A stretch of DNA of 62,978 bases, filler included, from Vannella sp. (lineage: Eukaryota), in NCBI GenBank assembly GCA_023345925.1. It is 9 parts of 9 records of this genome, joined end to end, with 100 filler letters (N's around TTAATTAATTAA, not from the genome) between each part and the next. Parts side by side here need not be neighbours in the genome. Positions count along the whole stretch, not along the records: positions 15,758 to 21,912 come from JAJQQN010000833.1; 8 more parts are not named here. One strand, written 5' to 3'. A model generated the notes under the pieces. The model was not told the DNA's origin. It ran no database searches and saw only the letters and a program-made list of their open reading frames with translations. Within the stretch, counting starts at the first letter, position 1; every line of letters begins with the position of its first letter. Below are positions 3,747 through 53,100 of this stretch, in pieces. The translations under genes were made by a program, and so were the position numbers.

Positions 3747-6700
3747 TTAAAAGGGGAACTTTCCTTGAAGTTGGGGCGAGAGAGATTGCAACGCATCTTG
3801 CATTTGGTTGGGCGACTGGGACTGCATTCTTTGGATCTCCTTGACGATGTCTGTTCTGGTCTGCTCATCAAGAAGGGAAGGATCTTCTATCGCGTTGACA
3901 AGGGCGGAGAGAACGAGAGGAAGATGGCTTCCTGCGGAGGCAGTAAAATGGCAGAGCTGTTTGTAGATGACACCGATTTCGCAGTTGTCATCGTCCTCTG
4001 AAATGGGAGGAGGAAGGAATGATATCCAAGTGGGCAGATGAGAGGCCACGTGGACATTGGCCGAGTGGAACTGGAGGATCTTGCCGATGGCTGAAAGAGC
4101 GTTTTGAGTGACCAAAACATTTTCTTCTTCCCGGCTGTCTTCTGCAGAACTCATCTGGAGCAATGCGGTCAAAGAGTCTTCGAGAACAGGGCTCATAACT
4201 TCGGGATTCTTCTCCGCGAGAGCTCCCAGCGCATAAGCGACTGATTGCCGGACATCATTCGCATCGTGTGACACCAAGGACAAGATCTTTGGCAACCAGG
4301 ATTGGTACACAGGAGTAGCTTGGACGGTGGCAGACTCGACAAGATCACCAAAGTAGCACACACTCACGTTCGTCTCTTGGGAGAGCTCATTCAAACTCTG
4401 TCTTTCAATTGTTAGTACCTAGATAGGTGACAAAGAGAGAAACGCACCAACAGAGTGCCAAAGAAGTTCGTAATGTTGCCAAGGAGAGAGAAAAAGGATT
4501 CTCCTCGGGTCTTCAGCCCTTTCCTGACAATGTTTTCCACCATATCGATGATGTCGTGTTGCGCATCCAGATTCTTATGGCAGTGGCAGTCTTCCTCTTC
4601 ATGGCTGTCATGTTGGTGAGGATTTCGCTGCTTCATGAAGGATTCAAACAGTTTCTCCAAGCTGGCAACGACAGCCTGGACCTCAGGAGTGGTCAAATAG
4701 TTCCCGCCAGTCTCCATAAACTCGTCTAAAACCTCCAAAAGGGAGATGCACCCCACTTCGACTGTCTCTTGGTCAATAGCTCTGATGATTTCCCGAACAG
4801 CTTGGCAGACAAAGCTCTGGGTTTGCGGGCTTTCAAGTCCAGTACATTGCACAACGGAGCGCAAAAGAGAGCGAAGAATGAGAGCAGAACCAGAACGCAC
4901 CAGTTCTTCATGAGGGAATGCCAGTCCGTCCATGCAGATGGGCAGAATCACATCAAAGTGGGGGTAAATCAGTTCAGTAAGCTCACTGGAGAGAACAAAG
5001 AGCCACCCAACTGCTGCAGCTTTCTCCTTGACAACAGCTGAGCTGACTCCCAAGTTGCTCTGATCTGGGTCAAGAAGCTGCCATTCAGCCTCGTCGTTCA
5101 TTTCCTCATCCGTGAGGAACTTCACTTCCACTTGAAGTCCAGCAGAGCGTAGAATGGAAGGGAGAATGGGTTCTAGATAAGGTGCGAACTCGTGCTGAAG
5201 GGCTTTCGCAAAGGATCCCCAAGCACTCTGAAGAAAAGCTTTGCGTGGGTCTTCCGCAGGAAGATTGGATCCTTCAAGCTGCAGAAGGACTTCCATAATC
5301 TCTTGCGAATCAACGCGGAAAACTTCGAGACCCACTGCCGATGCCACAAGTCCAATAGCTGCAATGGACTTTCCTCTTATCTCCAAAGTGTCTACCAATC
5401 CACTGCCAGACAGGAAGGCCTTCATCAGTGGCAGTGTGGCTCCATAAAATGGAATAAAATCAATTTCAATGCAAGCAGCAACCACACCTGTTGCTATGAT
5501 GGCTTGCTCCACAACAATGGACTGATTGGTTTGCATTAACTCAATGAGTCTGCCAAGGAGAGGTTCTGCGTGGGGAAGAACGCACTCTGGGTCAGCATCT
5601 TGCACAAAGTTGATGATTGCAGCAGCTGCAAAGGACTGAACCCGCGGATTAGCGCGGTCATCCATAGCTTGAAGAAGAGAGCCGACGAGTTCCTCGTGGA
5701 AGGTCTTCTGTAAGACTGGCTGAAAGTCACTGCACAAGTGTCCCACTGTCTTACAAGCGGCCCACCGCACTCGCTCATGCGAGTCCTTGAACGATGGAAG
5801 AACCAAAGAAACCACTTCTTCCAGGTTCTGCTCAAAAACTTCCGCGCAGCCTTCTCCAGCTACTCCAATGGCCAACACGGCGGCCATTCTGGTGCGCCAG
5901 GACGAGTTTTTGACCATGGCAGGCAAACAATCCTCTCCCAAAAGGATGTCTGCTACACTGCTGTGCAGGGCTTGTGCCAGCTGGTCGAGGAAACCCCGTG
6001 CTAACTCGCTCTCTTCGTCTTCAAGGTCAAATTCCTCGCCTTTGTTCCACTCCTCGTTGTCCTCTACATCGCCTACCATCGAGAGCAAGAGCTTCACGAG
6101 CTCTTCCAGCTCGGAATGTCGCTTCTGAAGGAACGAAGAGTCACTTTCAGCCAAAGAGAGGATTCTTTCGAGTGCCCAGTGCCTGATAGGTGAGCCACTC
6201 GTTAAGGAAGGTACTCATAAAGAGAAAAGGAGAGAGGAGGGTGCAAGGATATTGCCAGGGAGCGAGCGGTTGGAAGAGGCGGAAAGGCAACTGCCGAGGA
6301 AGGAGTTTTGGAAGTCTGCGGCGATCGCAGGGATTGGTGAGACTTCAGACTCGAGGAGAGCATTGAACACTTCCATTGCGGTCTGTTGTTGGGCGGCCAA
6401 GGTGGATCCCATCCACTGTCCCAGCAATGCCACGAGTTCAGGCCACGGGTTTGCTGAACAAAGGAGGATTTAGGGCCCTACGGTTGCTTAGGATACGTAC
6501 CTTGAAGCACTGATACAGCTACGGACCCAACAAGGTTGTTGAGATGAGCGTGGAGTTCGAGGGGCGGATTGGAAGTCAAAAGATCGATCAAAAGGAGCTT
6601 CAGAGCGTCTCTTGTGGGAGATTGGATGGTCTCCCACACACTATCGACCGTCTGAAGTAAAGACAGTACACAGACGCGCTCCTATCAGCGATGAGACAAA

Positions 6701-6940
6701 GAAAATGCGCTTCCCGACTGGTCAACCCACCGCCAAGGAGATCTGGTCGCTCTTGGCCAAACCACACAAGCACAAGAGGTACTCGTCAGGCATATCACTC
6801 AACATCTCATCCGTCCGCTCCTCTGAACCACTCAAAGCTCCAGTGATGATCCCCCGAAGTTCCTTTTCCATCGAAAGACCAAGAAGAAATGGTTTCCCGC
6901 CCTTTTCCCTTTTTCCCCCCTCTCCAGTGATGCCCTTCAT
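3747..6940 (-). CDS. Importin-beta family HEAT-repeat karyopherin (IPO5/Kap121-like), copy 1, spliced; start at 6940 or 6871
   Basis: Motifs WPELV, RHWALE, LDQLAQAL, SWRTRMAAVLAIGVAGEGC, DSHERVRWAAC, NPRVQSFAAAAIINF, VRQSVAYALG and TQNALSAIGKI. Several short introns, including an AT-AC intron at 6190-6252. Confidence 0.85.
6190..6252 (-). other. U12-type (minor spliceosome) AT-AC intron
   Basis: Minus strand reads ATATCCTT...CTTCCTTAAC (branch site) GAGTGGCTCAC|. Removing it gives in-frame P-G-T-I-R-H-W-A-L-E and removes an in-frame stop. No in-frame GT donor is available in this copy. Confidence 0.88.
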
Positions 6941-7042
6941 ATGATTTGATTTTCTGAATCAAATTGGATTACAGGTGATGCTTAAATGGACTGACTCCGG
7001 AAAAAGTGACTTTGTGATGCGTTGAAGAAGATTTGAAATCTT

Positions 7043-8012
7043 TCAGTGGCGCCAACCTGTTAGTTGTGAGTAGGTGTTCGGAAACTGGGTGGTGGGAGAC
7101 TAGAGTCCAACCTTTCTCATGGCCGTCAGCCATCTGAGGTTCTAAGAAGCCGCGAAAGTGGGTTCCATCCGCTTCCCAACGCGCGCCATAACCTTCTGCG
7201 ATGCGGCACTCAAAGATAGAAACTTCGTGCTGCCAGAGCGTCAGAACCTTCCAAAAGAGGGCGCTCTTGGACTTACAGGAAGTTGGTGAACATTCAGCCA
7301 AACGGCCTCCTCGAGGATCCTTCCAATGACCTCTAAAGCTTCGGCATTCTTCATCTCATTCCCTCCCTGAAGGACAGCTCTGTCAGCAATGAAATGCTCC
7401 TCTTTGGCTGCCAACCTTCATGACTCCCCAGAAGCCATCGGAAGCTCGGTGAGCGTGTTTCGAAAGTGCGCGAGCTCCAACTGTTAGATTGACTCCGGGA
7501 CGGGAGCAGTGGAGTTGCTGGAAGGAAGCCAATAGCTTCTCTCTCAAGGGAGGGAGAATGGGGAGACTCCCTGCTGTATAGCGCATGCGCAATAGTGTTA
7601 ACACAACGCGGTCATCAAGAAGGTTCAAAAACTCCTTCCAAGTTTCCTTTAACTCGCGCGTGGAGGCTTCCAGAAGCGGAAGATCTCGAAAGCAGCGTTG
7701 CAAAAGGGGAAAGTGACTTTGTAACTTCTCATGATGTTCGGTGTACTGCTGCAGACCCTCAAAATTGGACTGATTGAGATAGCTAAGGTTCCCTGTCTGA
7801 TGCCAAACACTGAAAGAGCGCACCAATTCGTGGATCCGAGGCTCTGTAGGAAGCCCAACCGACCTCCAAGAGAGCTCCTCCCATCCCCCGCGGCTCTCAG
7901 ATGCTTCGAGTAAGCTTATTTGCATCTGCTCACTCAGAGAAACCTCCCCAAAGACCCTTCTTTCCAACACCTCCCGAAGGTCCCCCGCCAGCCCTCCCAA
8001 CCCCTCGGCCAT
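7043..8012 (-). CDS. Conserved protein with a GARALSKH...GYGARW...FRGFLEP...GWRH domain (like the C-terminal domain of plant ASCH-domain proteins), 3 introns
   Basis: Introns 7367-7415, 7230-7276 and 7057-7111 give ...LTVGARALSKHAHRASDGFWGVMKGGNEMKNAEALEVIGRILEEAVWLNVHQLPHEVSIFECRIAEGYGARWEADGTHFRGFLEPQMADGHEKGWRH*. The family resemblance is from memory. Confidence 0.75.
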
Positions 8013-8179
8013 CACCAAAATGAAAGTTTTTGTGTTTGGTTGAGACCAAACAAATCAATCTGAAAGAAGAAGAGCGCTGGGAGTCCTTTATTGAAGGGAA
8101 GCAGTTGGATTGGCACCAAAGTCCCTGATCGGTCCCTCCCCTCCCTTCCCCTTCGCTTCTAGTTGGGTTCAAATGAGAG

Positions 8180-11094
8180 TTACGGAAGCAGATGGAGAGG
8201 AAGTGATTGGAGCGCTTCAGCCAATTGGCTGGAGTGTGTCCGGGCATTTTTGATCTTTTCTGCCAACTCTGTTTTGGTAGCTTCGTCAAGGAGGTAAGGA
8301 TCTTGTAAGGCGTTGATAAGGGTTATTAGCATGAGAGGAAGATGATTTGTCACAGGAGTGGGAGTTGAGGTGGCAAAGTGGCAGAGTTGCGTGTAAATGA
8401 CAATGACTTCGCAGTTTTCTTCCTCCTCCGAGATGGGAGGCGGCAGAAGTGAGATCCAAGCAGGCAAGAGACTATTCACATCAACAAAGTCTCCGTGGAA
8501 GTGAAGAATCTTGCCCATTGCAGAGAGTGCGTTTTGAGTTACCAAAGTGTTCTCTCCTTCTCGGCCGTCCTCTGAAGAAGCCAACCGGCTCAATGCAACC
8601 CAAGACTCCTCGAGAACCGGTAGCAAAACCTTAAAATTCATCTCAGCGAGAGCTCCTAGCGCGTATGCAGCTGCTCGGCGCACAGAAACTTCATCATGTG
8701 ACACAATGGAAATCACTTGTGGTAGCCATGATTGGTACACAAGAGCGGATTGGGTGGTAGCGCACTCGACAAGGCCAACAAAAAAGCAGATGCTCTCCTT
8801 CGTTTCCTCCGGGAATTCATCCAAACTCTGTGCAGTAGTGAGAAGAATACGCAGAGATTCGGTCTCACCCAGCTTACCAAAAGACTGCCAAAGAAACTTA
8901 TGATGGGACTAAGGTTGGGATAGAAAGCATCACCGCAGGAGCGAAGTCCTTCAACAGCAATAGCTTCAATTCTCTGTAAGATTTCCCATCGTCCTTCAAG
9001 ATTATCTTCAGCAATAACTGGTTTCTCTTCTTGTATGTCGAGAAGAGCCAGATCTCGCTTCTTCTCAAAGGTTTGAATCAGTTTTCCCAAGAGTGACACA
9101 ACAGCTTGGAGTTCAATAGCACTCAAGCACTTGCCACCGATTTCGATACACTCCAGCAAGTTATCTAAATGGCACACAGATAATTCCTCAGAACCCCCGT
9201 TTGTAATGTAAACAGTCTTGGTGAGTTCGTGAACTGTTGTACAAGCGAATTCTTGAAACAGTAAATTTTCTGATCCAGCGTATTGCAAAGTCAATCGGAG
9301 AAGATCTACCAGTATGCAACCAGAGGAAGTTCGGATCTGCTCTTCGTGGGGAAACGCCAGCCCATTCAGACAAAGCGGGAGAATAGAATTGAAATACGGG
9401 AAGAGCAGCTCCTTCAGTTCACTAGAAAACAAGAACAACTGCTTCATTGCTTCTACCTTCTCCTTGATTATAGCAGTGCTAACTCTCAAGTCTCTCTTTT
9501 CATCCACACACAGCCAGTCCTCCTCATCATTTACCTGGTCGGCAGTCCTCACTTCTACCTTGAGTCCTGCTGAGTGTAAAACAGAGGGTATAACCTCTTT
9601 GAGATAAGGCCCGAACTCTTGCTGTAGGGCTTTCGCCAGAGCTCCCCACGATTCTTGAAGGGAGAGTTTGCGAGGATCGTCCTCAGGAAGGTTAGAGTGG
9701 AGTAGCCCGATGAGGACACTCATTATATCATGAGAATGTGAACGAAAGACTTCGATACCTACTACTGATGCAACAAGGCTGATGGCTTCGATTGCCCTCC
9801 CTCTTATCTTCAAAGTGTCAACTGGGCCATTTCCAGAGAGGTAGGTCTTCATCAGTGGCATAGTTTCTTCATAGTAAGGAATGAAACTTCTCTGGATAGA
9901 GCAGGCCACTCCAGCTATCGCAGTGATAGCCTGCTCCACGACAATTGCTTGGCCACACCTCAATAACTCGATAAGGTTGCGGAGGAGAGGAGCCACATGA
10001 ATAGAAATGATTTCCGGATCAGTATTGTCGCAAAAATTGATGATTGCTGATGCAGCATTGGACTGGACACGCGGATTAGCGCGGTCATCCATAACTTGAA
10101 GAATGGAACCAATGAGCTCCTCGTGAAAGAGTTGCTGCAATACTGGATGAAGATCAGTGGCCAATTGCCCTATTGCTTGACAAGCAGCCCACCGCACTCG
10201 CTCGTGCGGGTCTTGAAGTGAGCGAAGAACCAAAGTGACAACATCTTCAAGGTTTTGCTCAAAAACTGTCGCGCAACCTTCTCCTGCTATTCCTATGGCC
10301 GTTGCCATTGCATATCTGGTGCGCCATGATGAATTTTTGAGCATGGCAGGCAAGCAATCCACTCCTAACAGAATATCTGCCACTGTGCCATTCATCGCTT
10401 GTGCCAGCCGGTCGAGGGAAACGCAACCGATCTCGCTCTCTTCACTTTCCAGGTCAAAATCCTCCCCCTTGTTCCAATTCTCGTTGTCAAGGACATCGGC
10501 TACCATCAAAAGCAGATAATCGACGACCTTCCTCAAGGTAGGAAGCCTATTCTGAAGAAATAAGGGATTGCCCTCGGCCAAAGAGACTATCCGTTCGAGA
10601 GCCCAGTGCCTAACAGGTGAGCTTATCGTTAAGGAAGTCAGTAAGAAGGAAAGGAGGGGAGAGCGAAGAGGATATTGTCTGGAATAGACCGGTTAGTAGC
10701 ATGGTACAAGCAACATTGGAGGACCTCCTCAGCATGGTCTCCAACAATGGAGGGAATGGATTCCCCCGACTGAATAAGCTCGGTGAAAATATTCATCGCA
10801 GCTTGCCGCTGCTCAATAAGGTTGGAGTGCAGCCAATTTCCCAGCAACGAAGTGAGTTCAGACCAAGGATTTACCGAATGTCCTCAAAAAGAGGATGAAT
10901 GGCAGTACGAGTGGATCAAAAAGTAATACCTTCTGCTACTAATAGGGCAAAGATCCCTACAAGTGCATTTACATGCTCATGAAGGTCCAAGGGGAGTTTT
11001 TGGGTCAAGAGATCGACCAACGCAACCTTCAATGAGGCTTTCGTACCTGTCCGGATCTCCTTCCATGTGTCATCGAGCTCAAAAGACTGGATCA
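8180..11094 (-). CDS. Importin-beta family (IPO5/Kap121-like), copy 2, 5'-truncated by contig end
   Basis: Clear paralog of 3747-6940 (SWRTRYAMATAIGIAGEGC, DPHERVRWAAC, NPRVQSNAASAIINF, TQNALSAMGKI), with introns at matching positions. Confidence 0.85.
10617..10675 (-). other. U12-type AT-AC intron (same position as 6190-6252)
   Basis: Minus strand reads ATATCCTC...CTTCCTTAAC GATAAGCTCAC|. Splicing gives P-D-T-V-R-H-W-A-L-E-R in frame. Confidence 0.88.
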
Positions 11095-17552: not shown

Positions 17553-20500
17553 CTAAGGACCAATGATAGGATTTGGAGAGAAAGCTTTTGCTAGTTCCCT
17601 GTCCAGTTTGATACGTCTCCGACGGATTTGAAACTCGACTACCAGCCCTGAGAAGGCGACCAGCAGGACTGCTCCGCCCACCATTCCAAGAGAGATCCAC
17701 GAAATAGTGTCATCTCTACTATGCTGGCAGGGATCGTCTCTCTCGCTTCCGATTAGCAAGAGAGCAAAGTTTGTAAGGTGATCAGTTTGGCCACACAGAA
17801 GACTCTCCTCTTTGTTGTTGCTGTTGGATGATTTCGTACCTTTGGAGGCAATAGTGGTGAGACACTTATCTTCGCATCTCCATTTGTCTTTGCGCTCATC
17901 GTAATAGCTCAAACACACCCTTTGGCCCCTCTCTTTGTTTGGAAGGGCTAGACAGATGGTCAGTGGCGAGTCCAATTTGGTAATGGAGTTGCCTTGACCG
18001 TCGAAAAGGGTGATGTTCAGGACAGTGCTAGCCAGCGATTGCTCGTTAAAAGAGGTTCCCTCAATACTGTCAAAATAGGAAGTTATCAAAGTAATGTTGA
18101 CTTGGTTGCTCAAGTTTGAAGGTATGTACAGTGCTCCCACTAATTCCTTGCCTGGTAGGTCTGGGAGCTCCACCATGTTGTTGTTTGAGGCAAAATTAGA
18201 GGGATTGACGCTTACAATCAAGGCCTGAATGATAGCCGGAGAAGTAGTGGCAGATGAACTCACGGAGGGTGGATCACTCTGGCTAGTAGCAGAAGAGGAA
18301 ATGTTGATAACGGAGCCACTCGCGATCTCGCTTTCAGTCGAAGAAGGAGTGGATCCTGTAAGGAATGACTCTCTCCTACGAGAGGATGACTTCGATTCAA
18401 GGTCTGTTTCACTGGAGACACTTGATGAGAGCGTTGAACCAGCCGTGCTAAAAGAAATCGATCTTGACACGAAACTGCTTCTCGTCACCAGATTCGAGGA
18501 ACTAGCAGGGGAAGGAGTGTCCAATCTAGTTGGAGAGGGTGTTTCTGAAGCTGAATGACTTCCGCTGAGAGTAGCTGAACTCGACCCGCTCTCGTTACTT
18601 CTCGAAGGAAGCAGATCTGGAGCTTCAGAACTGCTGGAAAGAAGCTTGGAGGTACTAGAAGAACAGGTTGCTGAAGCAGTGAGACTTGCGCTGAAAGAGG
18701 GACTTGAACTGGCACTGATTAGATGCGTTGCTGAAGTAGTGGGACTTGTGCTGACGGAGGGACTCGCCGAGGTTGCTGCTGAAGCAGTAATATCTGCGGT
18801 GACAGAGGGACTTACCGACCCACTGCTGCTCGAAGAGGGTATTGCTGAAGCAATGAAAGTTGGACTAACAGAGGGAAGGCTTGGCACACTCTCACTACCA
18901 CTCGAAGAGGGTGTTTCCGAAGCAGAAGGACTGCCGCTGAGAGAGCGAGACCTCAACAAACTTTGAATGATACTTGTAGTTGGCGTTACCGAAGCAGATG
19001 AGCTCGCGCTGGGAGAAGGCGTTTCACTAGCCGAACTCGTAAACGAAGCGCACGCTCCGGTTATGTCATTGCATGTTGCTCCGCTTCCGATGTAACCAGG
19101 TGGAAGAGAAGAGCAATTGAAGACCTGATTGGTGAGATCAATCGAGTAATTGGCTGGGCGAGGATCGGGGAGATTTCCACAAAGTCGGTTGCTCCCTCCC
19201 AGATTGACAGTTAGATTCTGAATCTGCAAATCTTTCCAGTATGGCAGAAATCCACTGATCTGGTTGTTGTACAAAGACCTACGAGCAATCGATGAGCGAT
19301 GTCACATATTCTTCTGATTTAGAATGAACTGTAAGTACTCACATGAAAACCAAGCTCGTAAGATTGTACCATTCTGGAAGGGATCCGCTGATCTGATTGC
19401 TGTCCAATGACCTACAATCAGTCGATGAGCGATGTCTCAAGCTTGCAACGCTTCCAAATTTGGGGCCCTCGTGTCTCCCAAATGAAAGAGGGTCAAGTAC
19501 GTACATTGATTGCAGACTTGTCAGATTAGACCATGCTGGAATAGCACCGCTGAGCTGGTTGAAGCCCAAGAACCTGAAAGCAATCGATGAGTGATATTCC
19601 CAATGATGAGCATCCAAACCGAAAAAGGGATAAAAGTACTCACATGTAGAGCAGGTTCGTCAGATTTGGCCATTCAGGGAGACTTCCACTGATCGCGTTA
19701 TTGATAAAGTCTCTGTTTTCAATTGATAAGTGACTTCTAATGTGTCCATGGCTCTCATGTCCTCGGTGCGAAGTAATACTCGAAGAGGTTTGTAATGTAC
19801 TCACATGTACTGCAGGCTCTTAAGATTTAGCCACACTGGAAAAGATCCGCTGATCTGGTTATGATCCAAGATCCTGCGAGCACTTAATGAGTGATGTCCT
19901 CACTTTGTAAAAGAGGACTGAAAGTACTCACATCCTCTGAAGGTTCGTAAGATTAGGCCATTCTGGAAGAGATCCGTTGATCTGGTTGAAGGACAGGACC
20001 CTGCAAGCAATTGACGAGAAAAGTTCTTGGTTAGTGGCGCTCAAGTAAACATGGCAAAGCCGTATTCTCGCAAACGAACTGAAATACTTACATACGAAGC
20101 AGGCTCGCCAGATTTGGCCATTCTGGAAGAGATCCACTGATCTGGTTGTTTGTCAAAGACCTACAGGTAATCGATGAGTGATGTCCCGTACTAGAGCTGC
20201 TCCAATGATAACGTAATTCTCGTCCATCCAAATGGAGAGGACTACTCACATTTGCTCCAGACTTGTCAGATTGAACCATTTTGGGAGGATACCACTGATT
20301 TTGTTGTTTTCCAAGTACCTGGAATCGATAAGTCAAGCCCAATGTTGTGGCAGTCACATCCACAAGATTAAGTGATCCTCCTCTTCATCCGACGGGAAGA
20401 GAACTAATGCTTACATGATCTTCAGGCTCGCCAGATATGACCATTCTGGAAGAGATCCGTTGATTTGGTTGTTGTACAACAGCCTGCAAGCAAGCATCAA

Positions 20501-21294
20501 TAAGTGACAACTCTTGTGTAAGATCGGCCTACTCACATTCCCTCCAGATTTGTCTGATTCGACCACCCTGGAAGAGATCCACTGATCTGGTTGTTGTGCA
20601 AGATCCTGCCAGCAATCGGTGAGTGAGTTTCCCGTATTTGTTGCGCTAGTGATGAAGTTTCTCGCTCTCTCCATTCTATAAGAGGTTTAAACCTACATGT
20701 ACTGCAGTTCCATCATACTGGGCCATTCTGGAAGAGTTCCGTTGATTCGGTTGGTATCCAAGGACCTGCCAGTAATCGATGAGTGATTCCTCAGGCTGCA
20801 TTGCGTGTGGTGCTTATATCCAGATGGACCAGATTATCTTCTCCATTGAACTTACATGAACTTCAAGTTCTTCAGAGAGGGCCATTCTGGAAGAGACCCG
20901 CTGATCGTGTTGTTGAACAAGTACCTGCATGCAATCGGTGAGTTGAGACCTCCACTGGTGGTTTGTGGCGCTGATGGGAAGTTCACTGCTCTTCGCAAGA
21001 GAAGGGAGCAAAGTACGTTTCTTACAAAGTCGTGAGAGCGGGGAGTTGAAGATCCGGGAGGGTACCGGTCAAGTTGTTCGAGGGGAGGGAAATGACAGTT
21101 ACATTATCATTCGAGTCGCAGACAATGCCGTACCAGCGGGGCGCGCATGGGTCCGTAAGTGGTTCCCAGTTGATGATCCAGAAAGGGCCACCCGTTGCAC
21201 TGTAGAGGGAGAGAAGCGAGTCCGTCTGCTCCTGAGGTGTGGTACATCCCACAGACAGAAGCAAAGCGAAGAAGAAAGGCAACAAAGGCTGCAT
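17553..21294 (-). CDS. Single-pass surface receptor: signal peptide, LRR N-cap, ~13 LRRs, Ser/Thr-rich stalk, GAIN/GPS motif, TM helix, short tail (13 exons)
   Basis: Exon 1 (21026-21294) reads MQPLLPFFFALLLSVGC...SLYSATGGPFW...DPCAPRWYGIVC. Eleven 69-bp LRR exons follow. The last exon (17553-19278) carries the Ser/Thr stalk, CLSYYDERKDKWRCEDKC...LCGQTDHLTNFALLL and the hydrophobic WISLGMVGGAVLLVAFSGLVV. Confidence 0.9.
19279..21025 (-). repeat. Tandem array of exon+intron units, each exon 69 bp encoding one 23-aa LRR
   Basis: Exons 20856-20924, 20697-20765, 20537-20605, 20415-20483, 20250-20318, 20092-20160, 19932-20000, 19805-19873, 19644-19712, 19505-19573 and 19343-19411. All are phase 2-2. 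Intron 3' ends share ~CACTCATCGATTGCTyGyAG. Confidence 0.92.
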
Positions 21295-21470
21295 GGCCGC
21301 CCAAGGCTGGGGAAAAGAACTGAAACGCCATAAAAGGAACTAACTCCGTAACAGGTGGTCAACTCCAGTCAATCACGAAATGATTCATTGCTTAGCAACA
21401 TATAAAATCTTTTTTTCATTGATGCCAGCCGATTAAAGAAGCACTTTCAGCCGAGTGAAGGAAGAGGGCG

Positions 21471-21590
21471 GAGAGAGAATTCACTGCTCCACTCAACCAC
21501 GTCCCCTGGCCTCCGTTGAAAAGTGCCTCTAAATTCAACTGGGACCGATCCGAAAGATGATTTTATATGTTTTTAAGAGGGCAGCTTTTC
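21471..21590 (-). repeat. Dispersed ~120-bp element, copy A
   Basis: Minus strand: GAAAAGCTGCCCTCTTAAAAACATATAAAA...CCCAGTTGAATTTAGAGGCACTTTTC...GGCCAGGGGACGTGGTTGAG...GAATTCTCTCT. Similar to copies B and C. Confidence 0.8.
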
Positions 21591-21620
21591 CATCGTTTGA
21601 GGGATGATCAAATGAGCCCC

Positions 21621-21737
21621 AAAAGTACCTCGATCAAAACATATAAAAAGTTCATTGGTAAAGGTCCCGATCGAATGTAGAGGTACTTTTCAACCACGGC
21701 CAGGGGACGTGGTTGATCTGGGCTGTGAACTCTCTCT
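21621..21737 (+). repeat. Dispersed ~120-bp element, copy B (inverted relative to copy A)
   Basis: AAAAGTACCTC...AAAACATATAAAAAGTTC...GAGGTACTTTTCAAC..GGCCAGGGGACGTGGTTGA...GAACTCTCTCT. Perfect 11-bp inverted repeat at 21621-21631 / 21680-21690. Confidence 0.8.
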
Positions 21738-22012
21738 GCGCAGACACGAGTTCCACCCCTCTCTTCCCCTTCACTGGTGGATTTTCTCAAATTGCCCTTT
21801 ATTTTGTACCGTTTTTGGAAAATTCTCCAACAAGATGCTCGCATGTGCGAAAATGGTTTAAGTCGTGTTCCTCTGACGTGGCCGCCATTGATTGGCAGAA
21901 AAAGTCTTCCCCNNNNNNNNNNNNNNNNNNNNNNNNNNNNNNNNNNNNNNNNNNNNTTAATTAATTAANNNNNNNNNNNNNNNNNNNNNNNNNNNNNNNN
22001 NNNNNNNNNNNN

Positions 22013-25000
22013 TACCACAGTGGAGGAAACAAGCGGCTGCCGCCCCACATCTTCGGCATCGCTGATGCTGCGTACAAGGATATGTTCTACGGCAGTCAGA
22101 ACCAATCCATTCTTATTTCTGGAGAGAGTGGAGCTGGTAAGACTGAGGCTACCAAACAGTGCCTGGCCTTCTTCGCCGAGGTCGCCGGAAGCGAGGACAA
22201 CGTCGAACAGAAGATTATTCAAGCCAATCCCATCCTTGAAGCCTTCGGTAATGCCAAGACTGTGCGTAACAACAACTCCTCTCGCTTCGGAAAGTACATG
22301 GAAATCCACTTCGACAGGAATGGCAAGATCATCGGAGCTCGTACCGAGAACTACCTTCTGGAAAAGTCTCGTGTTGTCTACCAAGCGAATGGAGAGCGTA
22401 ACTTCCACATCTTCTACCAATTGGTACGGGGAAGTCTCAGCGAGAAGTACGGATTGAACCAGCCGTTGGAGTCATTCAGCTACCTCAACCAAAGTGGATG
22501 CTTTGATGCAGAAGACATCGACGATGTCAAGGAGTTTGAGGAAGTGCAGGAGGCCTTTGAGATTATCGGCTTCTCCCATGAAGAGACCGATTGGCTCTTC
22601 CGCACCATGGCTGGTGTCCTCAAGCTAGGCAACTTGGAGTTCATCGCCTCAGGAGAAGCAGGTTCTGCTATGAAGGACAAGTCCTTGGTTGGAGACATCG
22701 CTACTCTGCTCCAAGTGGACCCCAAGAAGTTGGAAGAGTCCGTCCTCTCCCGTTGGTTCGTCATTCGTGGCCAAGAACCCACAAAGATCCCTTTCAAGCC
22801 CAACGAGGCGCGCGATGCTTGCGACGCTCTCGCAAAAGCCATCTACGGAGAGGTCTTCAACTGGCTGGTGCAACGCATCAACAAGAGTGTGGAAGTAAAG
22901 AAGGGAGCCTCTCATCGCTTCATTGGAGTCCTTGACATCTTCGGCTTCGAGATTTTCGAGATCAACTCGTTCGAGCAGCTTTGCATCAACTTTGCGAACG
23001 AGAAGCTCCAACAGCACTTCAACCAGTACACCTTCAAGCTTGAAGAGAAGGTTTACGACTCCGAGAAGATCAAGTACGACCACATTGAGTTCGTGGACAA
23101 CCAGCCCATCCTTGACATGATTGAGAAGAAGCCTGACGGTCTTCTCGTACTTCTGGATGAGGAAATCGTCATGCCTAAGGGCTCTGATGAGACGTGGTGC
23201 CGCAAGGTGTGCCAGAAGCATGGCAAGGGCAACTACCTGGCTGCCAACCGCAAGAAGGACACAGCGTTTACTATCCACCATTACGCTGGCCAGGTGCTCT
23301 ACGACTCGACAGGCTTCCTCACAAAGAACAAGGACACTCTCTACCAAGACTTGTACGACGTACTAGCTGGAAGCTCTCACAAAATGCTTGCGGCCCTCTT
23401 CCCCCCCATGACCGGAGAGGCAGGTCGCAAGAAGATCTCCTTGGGAGGTCAGTTCCGCAAGCAGTTGTCTGACTTGATGGATAAGCTGAACCAAACGGTC
23501 CCTCATTATGTCCGTTGTGTGAAGCCGAACAACTTGAAACAACCCAACATCTTCATGAGCGTCATGTCGCTTGAACAACTGCGCTACGCTGGTGTGTTCG
23601 AAGCCATCTCCATTCGCCAGCAAGGTTTCCCCTTCCGCTACTCCCACAAAGAGTTTGTGCGCCGGTACAAGTGCCTGGCACTCAAGGACGACGGTTGGCG
23701 CCCATTGACGTCGAAGGATGCCAAAGGACAGTGCAAGGAGTTGCTCGATATTACTCGCCAAGACTTCAGCACCGTCCAGATTGGTCGCACTCAGGTTCTA
23801 TACCGCGCTCCTCAGCAACGTGTCCTCGAGCTTTTGCGCAATCTCTCTTTGGAACGCGTGTGCGTCATCTCACAAGGCTGGACAAGAATGACTCTCACTC
23901 AAATGTTCTCACGCCGCCTTCGTGCGGTGCGCCCAGCACTCCAAGAGGCTCTCAAAATCAATCACGATCTCGAGAAGGTTGAGGCGGCACTTGACAATGC
24001 GACCAGCGTGATTGGTGGACTCATCAAAGTGTTCAACTTCCAAATGTATGAGATTACCTTGGCCAAGGAGCTTCGCGTGAAGCTACTCGAGCGAAAGCGT
24101 GTTAGCGAAGTGCTTGCGGAAGTCTTCCCTCTCGATCCTGAAGACCATTTCGATGGTCTCACCGATGCTGTTCGCCAAGGTGATGAAATTGAAGCCTTCC
24201 CCGGAAACGCTCAACAGATTAAGCTGTACAGGGATGCCAAAGCCAAGTTGGAGCTTACCATCAACCGACGTGCCATTCGCGCGGAGTTGCGTGATGCCAC
24301 CTCCAAGGCAGAGAAGGAGCGCCTGTTGGAGGGTATTATCCGAGCCAAGGAGCTTGGCATCGGCAGTTGCTCTGAAGTGGAGTCAGCCAATGCCATGGTT
24401 GAACGCATCGAAAAGGAGGAGGCTGTGATTGCCAAGTTGCAGGATGCCCTTGCCGATGGTGGCATCACCTATTGGTCCCCCACTGCCCAAAGCCAACTCA
24501 ACCTAAAAGGTCTCGATGGCGCTATCTCAGAGGCTACTCGCTTCGGTATGAAGACGGCATTGGGCCTTACGTTGCTGAAGGCAGCCACATCCGTTAAAAA
24601 ACTGCGCCAAATGCTCTCTTCCGCTCCATGGGAAGGCCACAGCAAATGGATGGCCGTTGAGGCTCTGTTTGAGAACGAAGCCGATCTCGAAGACCTCTTA
24701 ACTAACGAAGAATTGGTCTGGGCCCGCGATGAAACAATATACCGCGCCCGTCTTCGAGAGGTGTTTGAGCCACTCAAGGCTGCTGTCGATATCCTCAACG
24801 AGGACGAGATTTCCAGACTCATGAAGACTCTAGAGGCCACTCCCGGTCTCGGTATTGACCAACTTCAGCGTTTGATGGAGAAGGAAACAGAGTTGGCCTC
24901 TACCGCTACTGAGGCGCTTGAGAAAGTCCGCAATGCCAAGAACCTTCTCACCCAAGCCAACGAGACCGAGGATGAGGACAAGCTTATTGCGGCTCTTGCG

Positions 25001-27220
25001 GCCGCCCAGAAGTGCAACATCAGCGATTCCATGGCAGCGCACTTACAAGAGCGCTTCGCTGTGGCTAAGATCCTCTTGGCCCTCAAATTCCACATCGCAG
25101 AGGGTGTTCGAGGTGAAGTCGGCCTCCTTCTTGACGAGGCATTGGCTGGAGCCACTTCCACGACCATGGTAGACGAAGACGGGACGAGTGTGCAAGAGCT
25201 TGGAAAGGAAGCTATCATTGCTGAGCTCAAGACACAAGCCAAGGCGATCACCGACGCATTGGCATACGCCCACACTGTCGAGATTGAGACGGACATGGGC
25301 CAAATGGCCCTCAGAAAGGGAGAAGTCTCCGTCCAGCTTCGCAAATGCCTTTTGGCCCGAGACTGGCCCGCTGTTGAGAAGCTGGTTAACCAAGCTGGGT
25401 CCCTCCAAATGGACGGAGCGGATGTCCGCCTGGCTCGAGACGAGATTCTCGGCCGCGCTGCTGCGGAAGACGTCCTTCAGAAGATTGAAGACGCCATTGC
25501 TGATATCGTCAACCCCTCTGCGGAGGAAGGCCATGACTCTGAAGGTGTCTTACAGACCTGCCTTGCTCAGGCTGAGCGTCTCCAGATGAAGGAGCTTCCT
25601 CAGATCACCCAAGGTCGTGAGTTGTACGATCGCATTGTAGACACTCGCCAAGCACTCCAGGCTTCCTTAGTAGTCACCCAATACGAGAGCCACATTACTC
25701 TCGCCGAAGAGTTTGGTCCTCTTTACGACATCTTGGGGACCAACATTGATGCCCTCGGCAACGCCATCGCCTTGGCAGGCGACTTTGAGTACCGCACGAA
25801 AGAGGTCGAGGATGCTGAGCACCTCTTGTACGAGCTCACGATTCTCCACAACTTGCAGACAGCTTTGCAAACGGGCGGTTACCTGTACGCTGCTTCGCCC
25901 CCCGATGTTCCTGCCGTGTTTGTGGAGGTTGAGCCACTCAGTGAAGCGTACGGACCCACGGATGGGTTCGAGTTGACCACAGAACTGAGCCACTACATCG
26001 TCACCAAAGCGTATCACATTATCTGCATCCGCGGAGCTGTTCAGGTTCTCAGTGCTGAGCACACCCACTTGGAAGAGGCGGTCAAAGAGGCAGCGGATGG
26101 AATCGGATACGACACTCCTGAGCTGCAGTCTGCCCGCGAACTGGTCGCTGTCGTCCAAGACATTCTTGCGCGCATGGCCACCGCCGAAGAGAAGGTCGAG
26201 CAGGAGCTATTGGAAGACGCTGTAGCCACCGCAGAGAAGTACTTCTACGAGAACGAGAATGTAGACCGCGTTAGGAAGCTGCGGGATCGCGTCATTCAAC
26301 TCAACGAAGAGTCCCGCCAGGCGCTCTGGAACTTTGACAAGGAGCGCATGGCGAAGGTGTACGGCGAAGCCAACGATATCCGCTTGGCAACGCAGCATCT
26401 GGACCGCATTGGAGGCTACTTGGACTTCTCTGAGGAGGACTTCCTCAAAATCGAGATTAAGAAGGCCGCTGAGTTGGGCGATGAGCCCCGAAAGATCCGC
26501 TTGTCGATTCGCCTCAAGGAACTCACCCTCAACATGTTCGGCGCCATGCTGGGCGTGCTTCAGTACAAGTCTTTGCGGTCTGGCAAGGACTTTGCCAACC
26601 AAAAGCTGCTCACCACCGACCGCAAGAAGTTAGCGTTGGGAATGATGTGCTGGACCAAAGTGCCTCTTCACACTTCTCTCACGGAGATCGAAGATCCCAT
26701 CCTCCTCAAGGCCGCTCTTCGCTGCCACAAGAACATTATCGGCTTTATGATGGACAAGAAGTACCCTTATCCTGCCACATTGGCTCAGGAGCTCATCCAG
26801 ACCGCCATCGAGTTCCCTGGCATCCGCAGCGAGATCTACTGCCAACTCATCAAGCAGCTGACGGAGCATCCCGTCCCCGCTAACAAGCAACGCGGATACC
26901 ACCTTCTGGCTCTATGCTGCGGCCACTTCCCACCCGGCTCTGACTTTGAGAACTACTTGGAGATGTACTTGCGCAACGTGCCTGAACTCTCTTCAAAGTA
27001 TCTCGCTGCCTTGCGCGATTCCCAATACGGAGATGCGGTCACAACCGCTCCTGCGCCTGAGCAAGTCGACTCGTTCGTGGCCACCTTCTTCAACCCCAGC
27101 CAGCCCACCGGCACCAGCAAGTTCTGCGTCGCTCAAGCCCTCAAAACCGCTTCCTATCCAGACTCCTTCTTCGCCGATGCTGAGAAGCTCTTCCTCGAGA
27201 CCGAAGTCGAGATCAAGTAA
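22013..27220 (+). CDS. Unconventional myosin heavy chain with C-terminal MyTH4 domain (class IV-like), 5'-truncated
   Basis: Motor motifs LPPHIF, GESGAGKTE, LEAFGNAKTVRNNNSSRFGK, DIFGFE and PHYVRCVKPN. One IQ-like segment, a long helical tail and a MyTH4 motif (IRSEIYCQLIKQLT...GYHLLALCCGHFPP). No intron is needed. Confidence 0.93.
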   Translation, partial: YHSGGNKRLPPHIFGIADAAYKDMFYGSQNQSILISGESGAGKTEATKQCLAFFAEVAGSEDNVEQKIIQANPILEAFGNAKTVRNNNSSRFGKYMEIHFDRNGKIIGARTENYLLEKSRVVYQANGERNFHIFYQLVRGSLSEKYGLNQPLESFSYLNQSGCFDAEDIDDVKEFEEVQEAFEIIGFSHEETDWLFRTMAGVLKLGNLEFIASGEAGSAMKDKSLVGDIATLLQVDPKKLEESVLSRWFVIRGQEPTKIPFKPNEARDACDALAKAIYGEVFNWLVQRINKSVEVKKGASHRFIGVLDIFGFEIFEINSFEQLCINFANEKLQQHFNQYTFKLEEKVYDSEKIKYDHIEFVDNQPILDMIEKKPDGLLVLLDEEIVMPKGSDETWCRKVCQKHGKGNYLAANRKKDTAFTIHHYAGQVLYDSTGFLTKNKDTLYQDLYDVLAGSSHKMLAALFPPMTGEAGRKKISLGGQFRKQLSDLMDKLNQTVPHYVRCVKPNNLKQPNIFMSVMSLEQLRYAGVFEAISIRQQGFPFRYSHKEFVRRYKCLALKDDGWRPLTSKDAKGQCKELLDITRQDFSTVQIGRTQVLYRAPQQRVLELLRNLSLERVCVISQGWTRMTLTQMFSRRLRAVRPALQEALKINHDLEKVEAALDNATSVIGGLIKVFNFQMYEITLAKELRVKLLERKRVSEVLAEVFPLDPEDHFDGLTDAVRQGDEIEAFPGNAQQIKLYRDAKAKLELTINRRAIRAELRDATSKAEKERLLEGIIRAKELGIGSCSEVESANAMVERIEKEEAVIAKLQDALADGGITYWSPTAQSQLNLKGLDGAISEATRFGMKTALGLTLLKAATSVKKLRQMLSSAPWEGHSKWMAVEALFENEADLEDLLTNEELVWARDETIYRARLREVFEPLKAAVDILNEDEISRLMKTLEATPGLGIDQLQRLMEKETELASTATEALEKVRNAKNLLTQANETEDEDKLIAALAAAQKCNISDSMAAHLQERFAVAKILLALKFHIAEGVRGEVGLLLDEALAGATSTTMVDEDGTSVQELGKEAIIAELKTQAKAITDALAYAHTVEIETDMGQMALRKGEVSVQLRKCLLARDWPAVEKLVNQAGSLQMDGADVRLARDEILGRAAAEDVLQKIEDAIADIVNPSAEEGHDSEGVLQTCLAQAERLQMKELPQITQGRELYDRIVDTRQALQASLVVTQYESHITLAEEFGPLYDILGTNIDALGNAIALAGDFEYRTKEVEDAEHLLYELTILHNLQTALQTGGYLYAASPPDVPAVFVEVEPLSEAYGPTDGFELTTELSHYIVTKAYHIICIRGAVQVLSAEHTHLEEAVKEAADGIGYDTPELQSARELVAVVQDILARMATAEEKVEQELLEDAVATAEKYFYENENVDRVRKLRDRVIQLNEESRQALWNFDKERMAKVYGEANDIRLATQHLDRIGGYLDFSEEDFLKIEIKKAAELGDEPRKIRLSIRLKELTLNMFGAMLGVLQYKSLRSGKDFANQKLLTTDRKKLALGMMCWTKVPLHTSLTEIEDPILLKAALRCHKNIIGFMMDKKYPYPATLAQELIQTAIEFPGIRSEIYCQLIKQLTEHPVPANKQRGYHLLALCCGHFPPGSDFENYLEMYLRNVPELSSKYLAALRDSQYGDAVTTAPAPEQVDSFVATFFNPSQPTGTSKFCVAQALKTASYPDSFFADAEKLFLETEVEIK

Positions 27221-48782: not shown

Positions 48783-49200
48783 ATTGGACGCTCCGCTGGT
48801 CATCTGTCTGGCAAGGCCCAATGCCACGAAGAAGGTGAGGAACAGTGGAGTCTGTCTGAGCTTTTATGACGAGCGCAAGGCCAAGTGGGTGTGCGAGGAT
48901 GAGTGCCTTTCATACACAGGAAAGGAGGATCAGCTTTGCGGACAGACCAGCCATCTTACCAACTTTGCTCTTCTTCTGTCCGGCGCATCTGGAGGGAGCG
49001 GCGATGGCGATCCTTGCACCTCTTCCAGCCAAGACAACACACTGGCCTGGGTGTCCTTGGGCATGGTCGCTGGAGCCGTCATAATCGTCGCTTTTTGTGT
49101 GGTCGTTGTTGAGATCTGCACTCGTGCGAACGCTGGTCTGTTGGACCAGCAAATCAAAAGCAGATTCAAAAATGTGGGCGCTTCAGCAGCCAGCATCTAA
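48783..49200 (+). CDS. 3' end of a GAIN/GPS + single-TM surface protein (paralog of the 17553-21294 C-terminus)
   Basis: LDAPLVICL...VCLSFYDERKAKWVCEDECL...LCGQTSHLTNFALLL...DPC...WVSLGMVAGAVIIV. Confidence 0.85.
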
Positions 49201-50175
49201 GGCTTACTCGGCAGTCAATAAATCATCTCCACTCTTAAGTAACGAACGTTCTGAGAAATTAAGCGTCAGCCCCAGCCAGCGTTGCACCCAGTGCTCGGAG
49301 AGCTGTCCACTGAACGCAAAACTTGCGAGTCACTCAAGTGCAAGTAATTGTTGGTCAGGAATCCTTCCCACATGACGCTGCTTCTGTGCAGGCCCATGAA
49401 ACGCTACGGAAAAAGTGTGTAGATTCAGGCTAGTGGGGGAACAATTAGTTCATACTATTCAACGAGTAACTCATTAGAACTGTCACTGACCAGGGGAATC
49501 CGACTGGGGCGCCCAATGGCGCAGGAAATCAAGCTAGTTTCTCTGCTGCATTGCTTGGGAGTTCTCGAATCTCGAACGGAGAGAAGGGAAACGCAGTGCC
49601 CTCTCATGACTTCTCTCGAGAAAGATGAGGGGTTTTGAGGTTTAGCGAGGTGCAATCAAAGAATCCTCGTCTTACATGTCAAAGCTAAGCATCAAAATCA
49701 TTGTAGGTTGGCTCAAAGAGAATCCACGAGCCGAGGGGAAGAGGTCCCTAAAACTCGTGCTGATGACCTCCATCTCTACAGGATAAGCTTTTGAGCTGAT
49801 TTCATTTTTTGAGTTTTGGTTGCTCCAAGGAAGGACCCACATGAGGGGAAAAAAAAATGCCCTCGTGAACGATTTATACTGAGGACAAGCTCGCAGGATT
49901 CGGGACGAAGAAAACTTAAAAACCAATGAAAATATGTTCCGCTCCTTCATTGGCGAGCGATTTGACACCTGCCCAAAAGGTGGGAGGATCTGATTGGTCC
50001 GAAGAGCGCTGACCAAGGAGGACTTTTAAGACGGAGGATCAATTCCGAAATGGCCTCTTAAACGTCAAATGTAATGGTCAGAAAGAAAAGTGAAGAAGTG
50101 GTCTTGTAAAGGATGAATGAAGAGCTCATCGACCAATCAAATCGCGAGGTCGTGCCCGATCGTTCACTTTTTCTT

Positions 50176-53100
50176 ATGGCTTGTTGGTGGAGGTTGCTTC
50201 TGTTCTTTGGTCTCTTGGCAGCTGCTCTTGCGCAGAACTGTGTGCCAAATGTGACTGTGATTGGAGTGGGACAAGTGCGTGGAAGTACCCTCGGTGTGCC
50301 CGTGAGCCAAACTCTCGATTCTTTGGGCTACTCCAGCTGCCGTTCTATCAATACTCGCAACGAACGAGCAGTGTTCTTCTCTTACACGCCTGAGAGAAAA
50401 GCGTTGAGAACTTCCGTCTCTCTCTGTAACAGCACCAACGTGGGGCCAGGTCGACTTGATTTTCTCGAGTTCAGCGCCGCTTGCAACACTACGCAATGCC
50501 CCTTGTCCTACTACACCAACCTTTGTGGTAACACATACCCATCGTTGATGATCACGCCTACTCTTCAGTTTCCAAGCCTTCTTCTGTCTGTCCAAGAGGA
50601 AGTTGGAGGAGGTTCGTTCTCCTTCACCCTGGAAGTGAAAGAGGATCCCCTGTGCGATCAGCTTTATCAGATCTTCTTCCCTTACGGTGAGTATGTCACC
50701 AGCTCGTTCACCATCCAAGACTACGGCCTCCCCAACTGTGTCCCTGGAATGGAGCAAGTCGCCTTGTTGAAGCGCTTTCGCCCCTTAGAGAATCACATGG
50801 AGCTTCTGATGTCCTTCGCACAACTGTCTGGTCCTGCGGTTGTTGTCATCTATCGAAACGGATGCTCTCAACCCACTTGCGAGGGACCCGTTTACACCAG
50901 CAACGGCATTGGTTTTCTCTCGGCATCCTCAAAACACGTTTCCAGCAGGTGACGATCTCTTGATCGCCATTCTGAGAAGCTCTTTAATCACCCGAGGCTC
51001 TCGTTCTCCTTATTCTTTTTCGATCGCTGAAGTACTGCCTTTGACGGACAACTTAGAGTGCGAGAACCCTTTGGAGGCTCAACCTGGTTTCTTGTACGTT
51101 GAAGCTGTCCCAACAGGAACGTTCTCTGTGAATCAATCTCTCCCATGCACAGACCATCAAGGAATCGTTTACTTTTTCAAGTACACTATTCAGGGACCCA
51201 CTCGGTTCTCTTCTTGCCCAACTGGTCTCTATAACTATCCAGAGTACTCATCTGCTGGACAGATCTCCTTGTACACAGGATCTTGTGACAATCTGCAATG
51301 TCTCATTCCTTCTCGCACAAAAGGTTGCGCATCCAGCTCTGTTGGTCAATATCTCGATGTCCTTTCCACCAATCCAGGGACAATTGTCACCGTTGCCGTC
51401 TACTCCCTTCCCACTATTATTAGTTCACGTTCTCTCGTTTCCCTGGAAATCAATCGAATCTTCCCTTTGAATGACCAATGCACCACCAGCAAGGAAATTT
51501 CCAGTTCAGTCCTGATTGAAGGAGACTTGCGACTCGTTCAAACGAATTACTTGAACTCCCGCGTCTTGTGGTACAGATATTACTCCACAATGCCTGAAAG
51601 CAAGATCACTGCATCGGTTTGTTATAACACTCTCGGTGACCCCCAGGTTGGCATCTCGCTGTTGGATTGCAGTTCTCCTACCCTTTCTGTTTCAAACGAA
51701 CGAGGCTGTTGGGAAAACTCTAACGCTGCAATCACCTCTTCTCGTGCAGCAGTACCATTCCTCATTTACGTTTTCCAAAATGATCAAAATCGATATCCTG
51801 CAAATCGTTTCCAGCTTGTGGTGGAAGAGCAACCCCTTGTCTTCAGTTGCTCCTTGATCCCATTCATCACAACAAACAACAGAATTATTGAAACCACCCG
51901 CTCGGATTCTGTTCCTCTCCCGACTTGTGGTGATGGTCCTTCTGTTTCTCCTTCATCACTTCCCAGCCATGTTTCTACACTTTTCAAGTTTGCAACTGAC
52001 AATGCCAGTAGCACTATTCTCATCAGCGCATGCCCTACTGCTGACGCGGAGAGTATTCAATACTACCCTCGAATTGCCGTCTACACTGGAGAGTGTGGGT
52101 CGCTCCAATGCTTTTCTAACTATTCTTCTTGCATGGCATCTATTGAAGGTCTCCCTCCTTCCAGCATTGTCTACATTGCTGTAATCCACAGCGGCGTAGC
52201 GGAGATCACAATTGGCAAGCCGAGCCTTTTGCCCACTGGAGTCGACTGTCAAACTGCCCTACCATTACTTAATGGCATTCCAATCAGTGCCAACACGTCA
52301 GAATACGCCTTGCGCGCCAATCCGTTCCTTTTCGAAAACAACGCGCGGAATTATGTGGTTTTCCGTTATCAAGTTCAGCGAGAATTCAGCTATATTGCTA
52401 TTACAACTTGTGGCTCCCCTACTCCAGTTACTGTAAACCTATTCACTGGAACCTGCAGTTCTTATCAACATATCGGTCCGATCAATTACCTGCCAAAATG
52501 TTCAAATGGAGGAGTTACAATCCAGGCCGGCCAATATGCGCCATTCAACAAAGGGGAGGTAGTTTATTTCCTCGTTCATGCTGTGGCACAAGAAGGTCTC
52601 TTTTTGCTCCAAGTCAACGAGCTCTCTTCCGCTTTTCAGTATGAAGGAGTGGAAAAGGATCCTTTTCCTTGCCAAAATGCAAGTTTGATCCGATCTGGTG
52701 ACATTGTGCAAGGTCTTCCTTATGGATATACCCTTCTTAAGGACGTCCTAAGCATCAACTTCACTGGGTGCCTTTACCAGATTGATTTTAGAGATATAGA
52801 TTCTGGTTTTCTAGAGTGGCCGGTCCAGTTCTTCCGATTCATTGTGACTGATCCTGAAGCTCGACTTGACATCAGCTCTTGTGATAGATCCACATCGACT
52901 GTCGCAGTGATTCTATTTTCTGGATCCTGCAGCGGGCTGCGATGTTTAGAAGCCGACTCGAGTGGTTGTGGAACACAGGGCAAAATAGGATACTATCTAA
53001 ACAACACGTTTCCCTCGGGAACCGAATTGTTCATTGGTGTTCTGTCGAAATTCCAAGGTCCCCTCAGCTCTCCGTTCTCCTTACGAGTTGCAGAAACGTC

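Follow-up and report, generated by a model that had tools for sequence, protein, structure and literature searches.

Plant LRR receptor-like proteins and kinases share a general architecture with an LRRNT_2 cap and a single helix, followed by a short tail in the receptor-like proteins. In plant LRR-RLK genes, phase-2 introns predominate (PMC4654520). In the brown alga Ectocarpus, the type II LRR exons of LRR-kinases were reported to be under positive selection, and no signs of shuffling were found in those loci (PMC3341825, Zambounis et al. 2012); the brown algal LRR-ROCO genes are documented to have spare exons, both intronic and inverted, as well as recombined paralogues and splice variants (PMC11378527, Teng et al. 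2024; PMC3341825). Nearly 50,000 phase-2 LRR exons of 90 bp were recorded over ten species of Tetrahymena, where exon number varies by unequal crossing over (PMC6564038). The GAIN domain comprises two subdomains, A (helical) and B (beta), and cleavage requires the entire domain (PMC3321182); GAIN domains without a seven-helix membrane part are known outside Holozoa, including GAIN proteins of Dictyostelium and Tetrahymena (PMC3321182; PMC12716839).

The gene described here lies on a 6.2 kb contig (15758-21912) within the window, i.e. the whole analysed stretch of 62,978 nucleotides, which is composed of several contigs with N-linkers between them. It is predicted on the minus strand (21294-17553) with 13 exons, which give a stop-free frame of 917 amino acids once the introns are spliced out (Table 1). 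The predicted protein contains, in order, a likely signal peptide (called by eye from the hydrophobic N-terminus), an LRRNT_2 cap (Pfam PF08263, E 5.8e-6, over the curated cutoff), 13 LRRs, a cysteine cap, a cysteine-rich module, a Ser/Thr stalk, a GAIN-B/ZU5-like domain with a GPS motif, a helix and a tail, everything from the last LRR onwards being encoded by the last exon (19278-17553, minus strand). The stalk is mucin-like, and the predicted protein has many N-glycosylation sequons. A Pfam scan of the first and last exons revealed no ROC-COR, kinase or NB-ARC domain, and the frame stops 26 aa past the helix. A search for a continuation into seven helices after the GPS gave none: one helix is predicted and, by eye, no membrane-type ORF follows further downstream on the same strand. 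Solved structures yielded no significant relative of the cap/EGF-like part, and a search for longer proteins with exon 1 gave four weak matches, whose listed domains never make up an LRR-GPS single-pass architecture.

Table 1. Coordinates of the predicted gene and its parts, counted along the window.
Feature	Position	Strand	Evidence
Exon 1 (269 bp): ATG at 21294, likely signal peptide, LRRNT_2 cap, first LRR; ends in phase 2	21026..21294	-	
LRR cassette 1, 69 bp	20856..20924	-	AG/GT scan, spliced frame, exon pattern
LRR cassette 2, 69 bp	20697..20765	-	AG/GT scan, spliced frame, exon pattern
LRR cassette 3, 69 bp	20537..20605	-	AG/GT scan, spliced frame, exon pattern
LRR cassette 4, 69 bp	20415..20483	-	AG/GT scan, spliced frame, exon pattern
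LRR cassette 5, 69 bp	20250..20318	-	AG/GT scan, spliced frame, exon pattern
LRR cassette 6, 69 bp	20092..20160	-	AG/GT scan, spliced frame, exon pattern
LRR cassette 7, 69 bp	19932..20000	-	AG/GT scan, spliced frame, exon pattern
LRR cassette 8, 69 bp	19805..19873	-	AG/GT scan, spliced frame, exon pattern
LRR cassette 9, 69 bp	19644..19712	-	AG/GT scan, spliced frame, exon pattern
LRR cassette 10, 69 bp	19505..19573	-	AG/GT scan, spliced frame; sole exon missed by the exon pattern
LRR cassette 11, 69 bp	19343..19411	-	AG/GT scan, spliced frame, exon pattern
Twelve GT-AG introns, phase 2, 53-101 nt; most with a common 3' block of ~20 nt including a branch-point-like motif	19279..21025	-	
Start of last exon: LRR 13, cysteine-containing capping repeat, small cysteine-rich module (EGF-like by eye)	19044..19278	-	
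Ser/Thr-rich stalk; S+T = 51% over residues 421-690	18237..19043	-	
GAIN-B/ZU5-like beta domain with GPS motif at its end; H-L-T at 17780-17772	17754..18227	-	
Single predicted transmembrane helix (~17705-17634), 26-aa tail, stop	17553..17705	-	hydropathy; model helix 182-220

An initial annotation of this DNA, which left out the larger gene of which the array forms the front part, had described eleven consecutive exons of exactly 69 bp, each encoding one LRR, and a scan for AG/GT-bounded LRR-coding segments recovered all of them on the minus strand, together with the twelve short phase-2 GT-AG introns of 53-101 nt, the array spanning exactly 21025-19279. The residues given there for the strand at each splice junction agree with our register in 11/11 cases, the first of the 12 junctions having been omitted. 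A degenerate pattern of the 69-bp exon matched 10/11 exons and nothing in 100 shuffles, and its search in collections of metagenome contigs and of viral contigs returned 0 matches in each. Tandem exons of equal length and symmetric phase 2, with one repeat each, are a feature of one-LRR-per-exon arrays that is thus present here. The conserved block at the 3' end of the introns is specific to the array, although introns 4, 5 and 9 match it poorly: a 15-nt version (at most 3 mismatches) was found in 8/12 array introns and at one other site (chance expectation 2.24), and with a leave-one-out weight matrix over the 21 nt upstream of YAG, 9/12 introns outscore every one of the other 3053 YAG sites of the window. 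Candidate introns of the other genes in the window scored negative with the same matrix, and this comparison against the YAG sites of the window rejects the block as a general 3' splice signal of the organism. Within the block lies CTCAT, CTCAC or CTTAT, which we take to be branch-point-like.

The middles of the introns are faintly alike as well (mean local score 13.7 vs 11.9 +/- 0.3 in shuffled sequences), and the cassettes share synonymous codons, with CCA for the conserved Pro in 10/11 (background 25%) and GGA for the Gly in 8/11 (background 39%). The specificity of the intron block, the likeness of the intron middles and the shared codons together show that exon plus intron units were copied in tandem, as had been proposed. 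The copying was not recent, because any two cassettes differ at 17-30 of their 69 nt, no pair being near-identical, neighbouring cassettes are no more alike than distant ones (r 0.01, p 0.46), the two halves of the exons give no common tree (r -0.27), and a PHI-type recombination test of the 11 short cassettes, which has low power, was not significant (p 0.71). The longest exact run common to cassettes is 28 nt. This divergence pattern fits a star-like burst of duplication, old exchange among the cassettes being also possible.

Like plant LRR receptor-like proteins, the predicted protein has an LRRNT_2 cap, repeats of the NxISGxLP type, a single helix and a short tail; unlike plant LRR receptors, it has 23-aa repeats, a long Ser/Thr stalk and a GPS domain, and no kinase. 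Ectocarpus type II exons also encode one LRR each and have their boundary within the beta strand (beginning with xLxxNxL and ending with LxxL in the published description; PMC3341825), and the strand-splitting boundary is therefore not unique to this gene. Those exons, however, measure 72 bp (24 aa) as against 69 bp (23 aa) here, and they belong to kinases of a brown alga, whereas the present gene encodes a predicted GPS-anchored surface protein lacking a signalling domain, from a probable amoeba (PMC3341825). The type I exons of brown algal LRR-ROCO genes are likewise phase-2, one-repeat exons, with selection reported at the concave positions that are likely selected here, but LRR-ROCO proteins are described as intracellular GTPases with the exon boundary outside the strand (PMC3341825; PMC11378527), and the window scan found at this locus none of the spare or inverted exons reported for them (PMC11378527). 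With the Tetrahymena arrays, the gene shares a unicellular eukaryotic setting, tandem LRR exons of equal length, phase-2 introns and a common junction codon, whereas the ciliate exons of 90 bp occur in thousands of genes, with clonal expansions of recent date and a retrotransposon linked to them, as against 69 bp in this single gene (PMC6564038). At the level of gene evolution, the gene resembles the cassette genes of brown algae and ciliates, and it is neither a ROCO, nor a kinase, nor an adhesion GPCR. Because the exon design is already on record from several lineages, this gene contributes a further lineage and another architecture but no new principle: what is new is a probably amoebozoan, GPS-anchored, single-pass form of the LRR cassette exon array. 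We found no description of an amoebozoan LRR-GPS single-pass family in the open-licence literature.

In the LxxLxLxxN numbering, the intron cuts the codon of L4, and Met stands at 10/12 junctions. A conserved backbone combined with a variable concave face was borne out across the 11 cassettes: N9, G, P, W and L1 are invariant, and x3, x5 and x7 show 7, 7 and 9 different residues, respectively. A fixed-site codon model with a shared synonymous rate gave omega 2.25-2.56 for the concave codons x2, x3, x5, x7 and x8 (p 0.002-0.003 vs 1, holding under three codon-frequency sets), compared to ~0.2 for the backbone and 0.83-0.88 for other exposed sites. The excess vanished when the concave codons were given their own rate (omega 0.94-1.25, not different from 1). 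Site models of the cassette codons favoured a selected class (M8 vs M7, p 0.006-0.013; M2a vs M1a, p 0.008-0.023) and singled out x3, x5 and x7 with posteriors of 0.93-1.0; all codon models were run with custom code on 11 sequences of 23 codons and a star tree, using naive empirical Bayes. These three positions correspond to exon sites 15, 17 and 19, which are reported as selected in Ectocarpus (PMC3341825). The hypervariable codons are interleaved with a conserved Leu codon (TTG in 9/11 cassettes), and this alternation disfavours conversion at the scale of tracts. Positive selection at the concave-face codons is likely, with a signal that is moderate and depends on the model.

The beta domain before the membrane was assigned from several comparisons. 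In the Atlas, its two best clusters are 100% PF01825 GPS (scores 0.93 and 0.91); the Pfam scan itself gave no GPS match (below Pfam's own threshold). The GPS motif columns C, W, C and H-L-T-x-F-A-L-L are invariant in 7/7 aligned rows, and the domain ends here with H-L-T-N-F-A-L-L. Foldseek with the low-confidence domain model (pLDDT 58) placed BAI3/BAI2 GAIN in the top three positions (E ~5-8e-4), and in VIA-align the same model tied between GAIN and ZU5 (Z 7.6-8.7, rmsd ~4, 135-141 aligned). The H-L-T GPS motif just before the membrane and variable N-terminal binding domains are shared with GAIN/GPS proteins such as adhesion GPCRs and PKD1-like proteins (PMC3321182; PMC12716839), but adhesion GPCRs have seven helices instead of one, and only the beta subdomain (~160 aa) is present here, the helical subdomain A being seen upstream neither in the model nor in the sequence. 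Since the B-like part stands alone, self-cleavage at this GPS is uncertain and a guess. For the GPS-plus-one-helix module, 483 cluster representatives reach E 0.001 or better; among the best 150, the motif occurs in 138, one helix after the motif in 122, and at least two helices in none. Longer relatives bear varied N-terminal heads (collar, FG-GAP repeats, cysteine-rich repeats), identified by a Pfam scan of 21 of the 150, most family matches being single-exon ORFs with possibly incomplete N-termini. An LRR cap resembling that of this gene was found in 3/150 relatives (P0002, P0084 and P0147). In P0084 the last repeat is preceded by an Arg, the residue expected if an AG acceptor at the same phase-2 position had been read through. 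LRR cassettes were absent from seven JGI loci that carry the GPS module (31-35% identity, 1.1-4.8 kb).

Because exons join in frame with M, L or I at every junction, the capacity for recombining exons exists: the claim that any exon skip stays in frame held for 78/78 possible joins, all stop-free, which would yield 74 different strands. An operating combinatorial repertoire, as the initial annotation had envisaged, is not supported, since near-identical cassettes, a recombination signal and orphan or inverted cassettes were all lacking and near-identical contigs are colinear. A six-frame scan of the whole window, including the search for orphan cassettes, detected just the 13 in-gene repeats, with no spare, inverted or broken LRR exon, and the longest array intron has 101 nt. 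Metagenome X1 may be the source sample, and those of its pieces that show 0-2 differences run colinear with the array where they overlap it; they cover exon 1 to cassette 1, cassettes 6-7, cassettes 9-10 and cassette 10 to the last exon, none crossing the whole array. A total of 228 X1 contigs matched, 193 of them less than 95% alike and 52 placeable at two positions, and their overhanging ends and a single joint look like further introns, ending in this 3' block, with different residues at x5 and x7. The X1 joints (15 listed of 34) were rejected as cassette deletions, being 85% alike and nearly all with undefined intervening sequence, for which paralogues fit better. The diverged relatives are probably paralogues, although other strains or species are also possible in a single metagenome. 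As many further contigs of one metagenome carry related cassettes, cassette diversity likely exists among paralogues.

Our preferred explanation, which we hold with moderate confidence, is that this 13-exon gene, probably from a vannellid, encodes a single-pass surface receptor or adhesin with a duplicated LRR arm, a concave face likely under selection and exons kept in a fixed order. The arm would have arisen by tandem duplication of a single exon-plus-intron unit, selection likely diversified the concave-face residues, and every exon is likely spliced in order, giving one main protein. Variation would likely build up over evolutionary time and not per cell, through point substitution and, now and then, cassettes gained or lost in frame among paralogues. 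Relaxed constraint, by which a structural coat or adhesion protein would have let its exposed strand residues drift after the old duplication burst, with the backbone conserved or homogenised, appears fairly unlikely. An omega of about 1 under a separate rate and simple counting at the concave codons (pN 0.60 vs pS 0.63) agree with it, as do the mucin-like stalk and the many sequons, and neutral divergence may exceed what the backbone dS suggests, because the intron middles are nearly unalignable. Drift would, however, leave the lower variation of the other exposed positions to be explained (pN 0.34 vs 0.60), and the fast sites are the very sites selected in brown algae; moreover, neutral simulations at a shared rate reached the observed diversity at first and second codon positions in 0/3000 cases, and in 0.5% at a 1.5x rate, becoming borderline at a 2-3x rate (p 0.07-0.03, codon-position statistic).

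Lamprey VLR genes diversify by somatic swapping of cassettes, and a comparable programmed recombination or conversion, exchanging cassettes per cell or clone via homology in the intron block and exon core, could be imagined here, given that variable codons are flanked by short conserved blocks (exact shared runs of up to 28 nt) and that the sample contains many related cassettes. We consider it highly improbable in view of the window, where no orphan, inverted or broken cassette occurs, the colinear near-identical contigs and the non-significant PHI-type test (p 0.71, low power); even for brown algae, the loci treated in PMC11378527 include no reported somatic recombinant. Regulated exon skipping, in ROCO or Dscam style, would turn one gene into many isoforms with hybrid binding strands, which the in-frame, stop-free joins (78/78, 74 different strands) would permit, and splice variants with differing LRR sets are reported from Ectocarpus ROCO genes (PMC11378527). 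Amoebozoans show little exon skipping, which is associated with long flanking introns, with exceptions (PMC6142364), whereas the introns here are short (53-101 nt) and the window contains neither mutually exclusive clusters nor spare cassettes; we therefore judge this alternative distinctly unlikely. A broader idea, that a vannellid family of GPS-anchored single-pass LRR receptors exchanges cassettes between paralogues, by way of the intron block and exon core, or skips them, thus forming a fast-diversifying, sheddable recognition repertoire, seems rather doubtful to us; if true, it would represent an adhesion-GPCR-like ectodomain system without a GPCR in a bacteria-eating amoeba.

The Ser/Thr stalk would keep the LRR solenoid at a distance from the cell, and the GPS-type domain would anchor the protein and may self-cleave, permitting shedding. 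Ligands of the predicted receptor would be prey, substrate or other cells, and signalling, if any, would proceed via a partner, the tail having just 26 aa. To our knowledge, the receptor-level basis of prey, pathogen or kin discrimination in free-living amoebae is poorly known. Surface proteins that are anchored by a GPS domain and bear interchangeable heads at the N-terminus, some of them likely selected LRR arms, are concrete candidates for recognition receptors, and this gene is a plausible diversified surface receptor among them; it would also exemplify a GAIN-type domain employed without a seven-helix receptor outside Holozoa. A vannellid amoeba is only the probable host, because the support comes from a single gene, located on a different contig of the bin. 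That gene, a myosin from a neighbouring contig, matches Clydonella sp. best among the named entries (63%), and in a quick tree of 21 rows, including 20 of the 120 listed matches picked by top rank or name, it groups with Clydonella (Vannellidae, Amoebozoa) with an SH-aLRT support of 99.

The window holds a second gene with the module of a GPS-type domain followed by a single transmembrane helix that characterizes the LRR cassette gene (the main gene), and the two modules are compared in an alignment of GPS-module sequences, in which the second is 56% identical. Only the 3' end of this second gene is present, at the start of another contig; its N-terminal part is missing, cut off. Eight N44-TTAATTAATTAA-N44 linkers (e.g., 21913-22012) connect separate contigs in the window, and genes on opposite sides of a linker are therefore no true neighbours.

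Features of the window accompanying the main gene
Feature	Position	Strand	Remarks
Two diverged HEAT-repeat genes in tandem	3747-10692	-	
Apparent imperfect inverted repeat, ~130 bp per arm	21420-21780		upstream of the main gene's ATG; by eye
Intronless myosin, long tail, MyTH4-type end	22013-27220	+	relatives carry PF00784
3' end of second gene with GPS-plus-one-helix module	48784-49200	+	GPS-module alignment
Very large predicted surface protein, intron-poor	50110-57082	+	cut at contig end

Among the protein relatives of the GPS module, P0004, P0033 and P0058 contain several ZU5/GPS-like units in tandem, related to the GPS-type domain of the main gene. P0004 has a lipoprotein-like N-terminus and, judged by eye, looks bacterial, which offers a lead on how GAIN and ZU5 are related. 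Two other relatives, P0073 and P0126, carry a phage tail collar domain (PF07484) at the head, anchored by the same stalk, GPS-type domain and helix as in the main gene.

The inverted repeat may be a MITE-like element or a promoter feature. The large predicted surface protein (>2000 aa) is built of repeated cysteine-containing modules, for which a Pfam scan at E 0.1 gave no match. The myosin belongs to a subfamily common to Clydonella and unnamed metagenome sequences, and the HEAT-repeat genes, which are separated by a short, unrelated gene, appear from their sequence to resemble importin-5.
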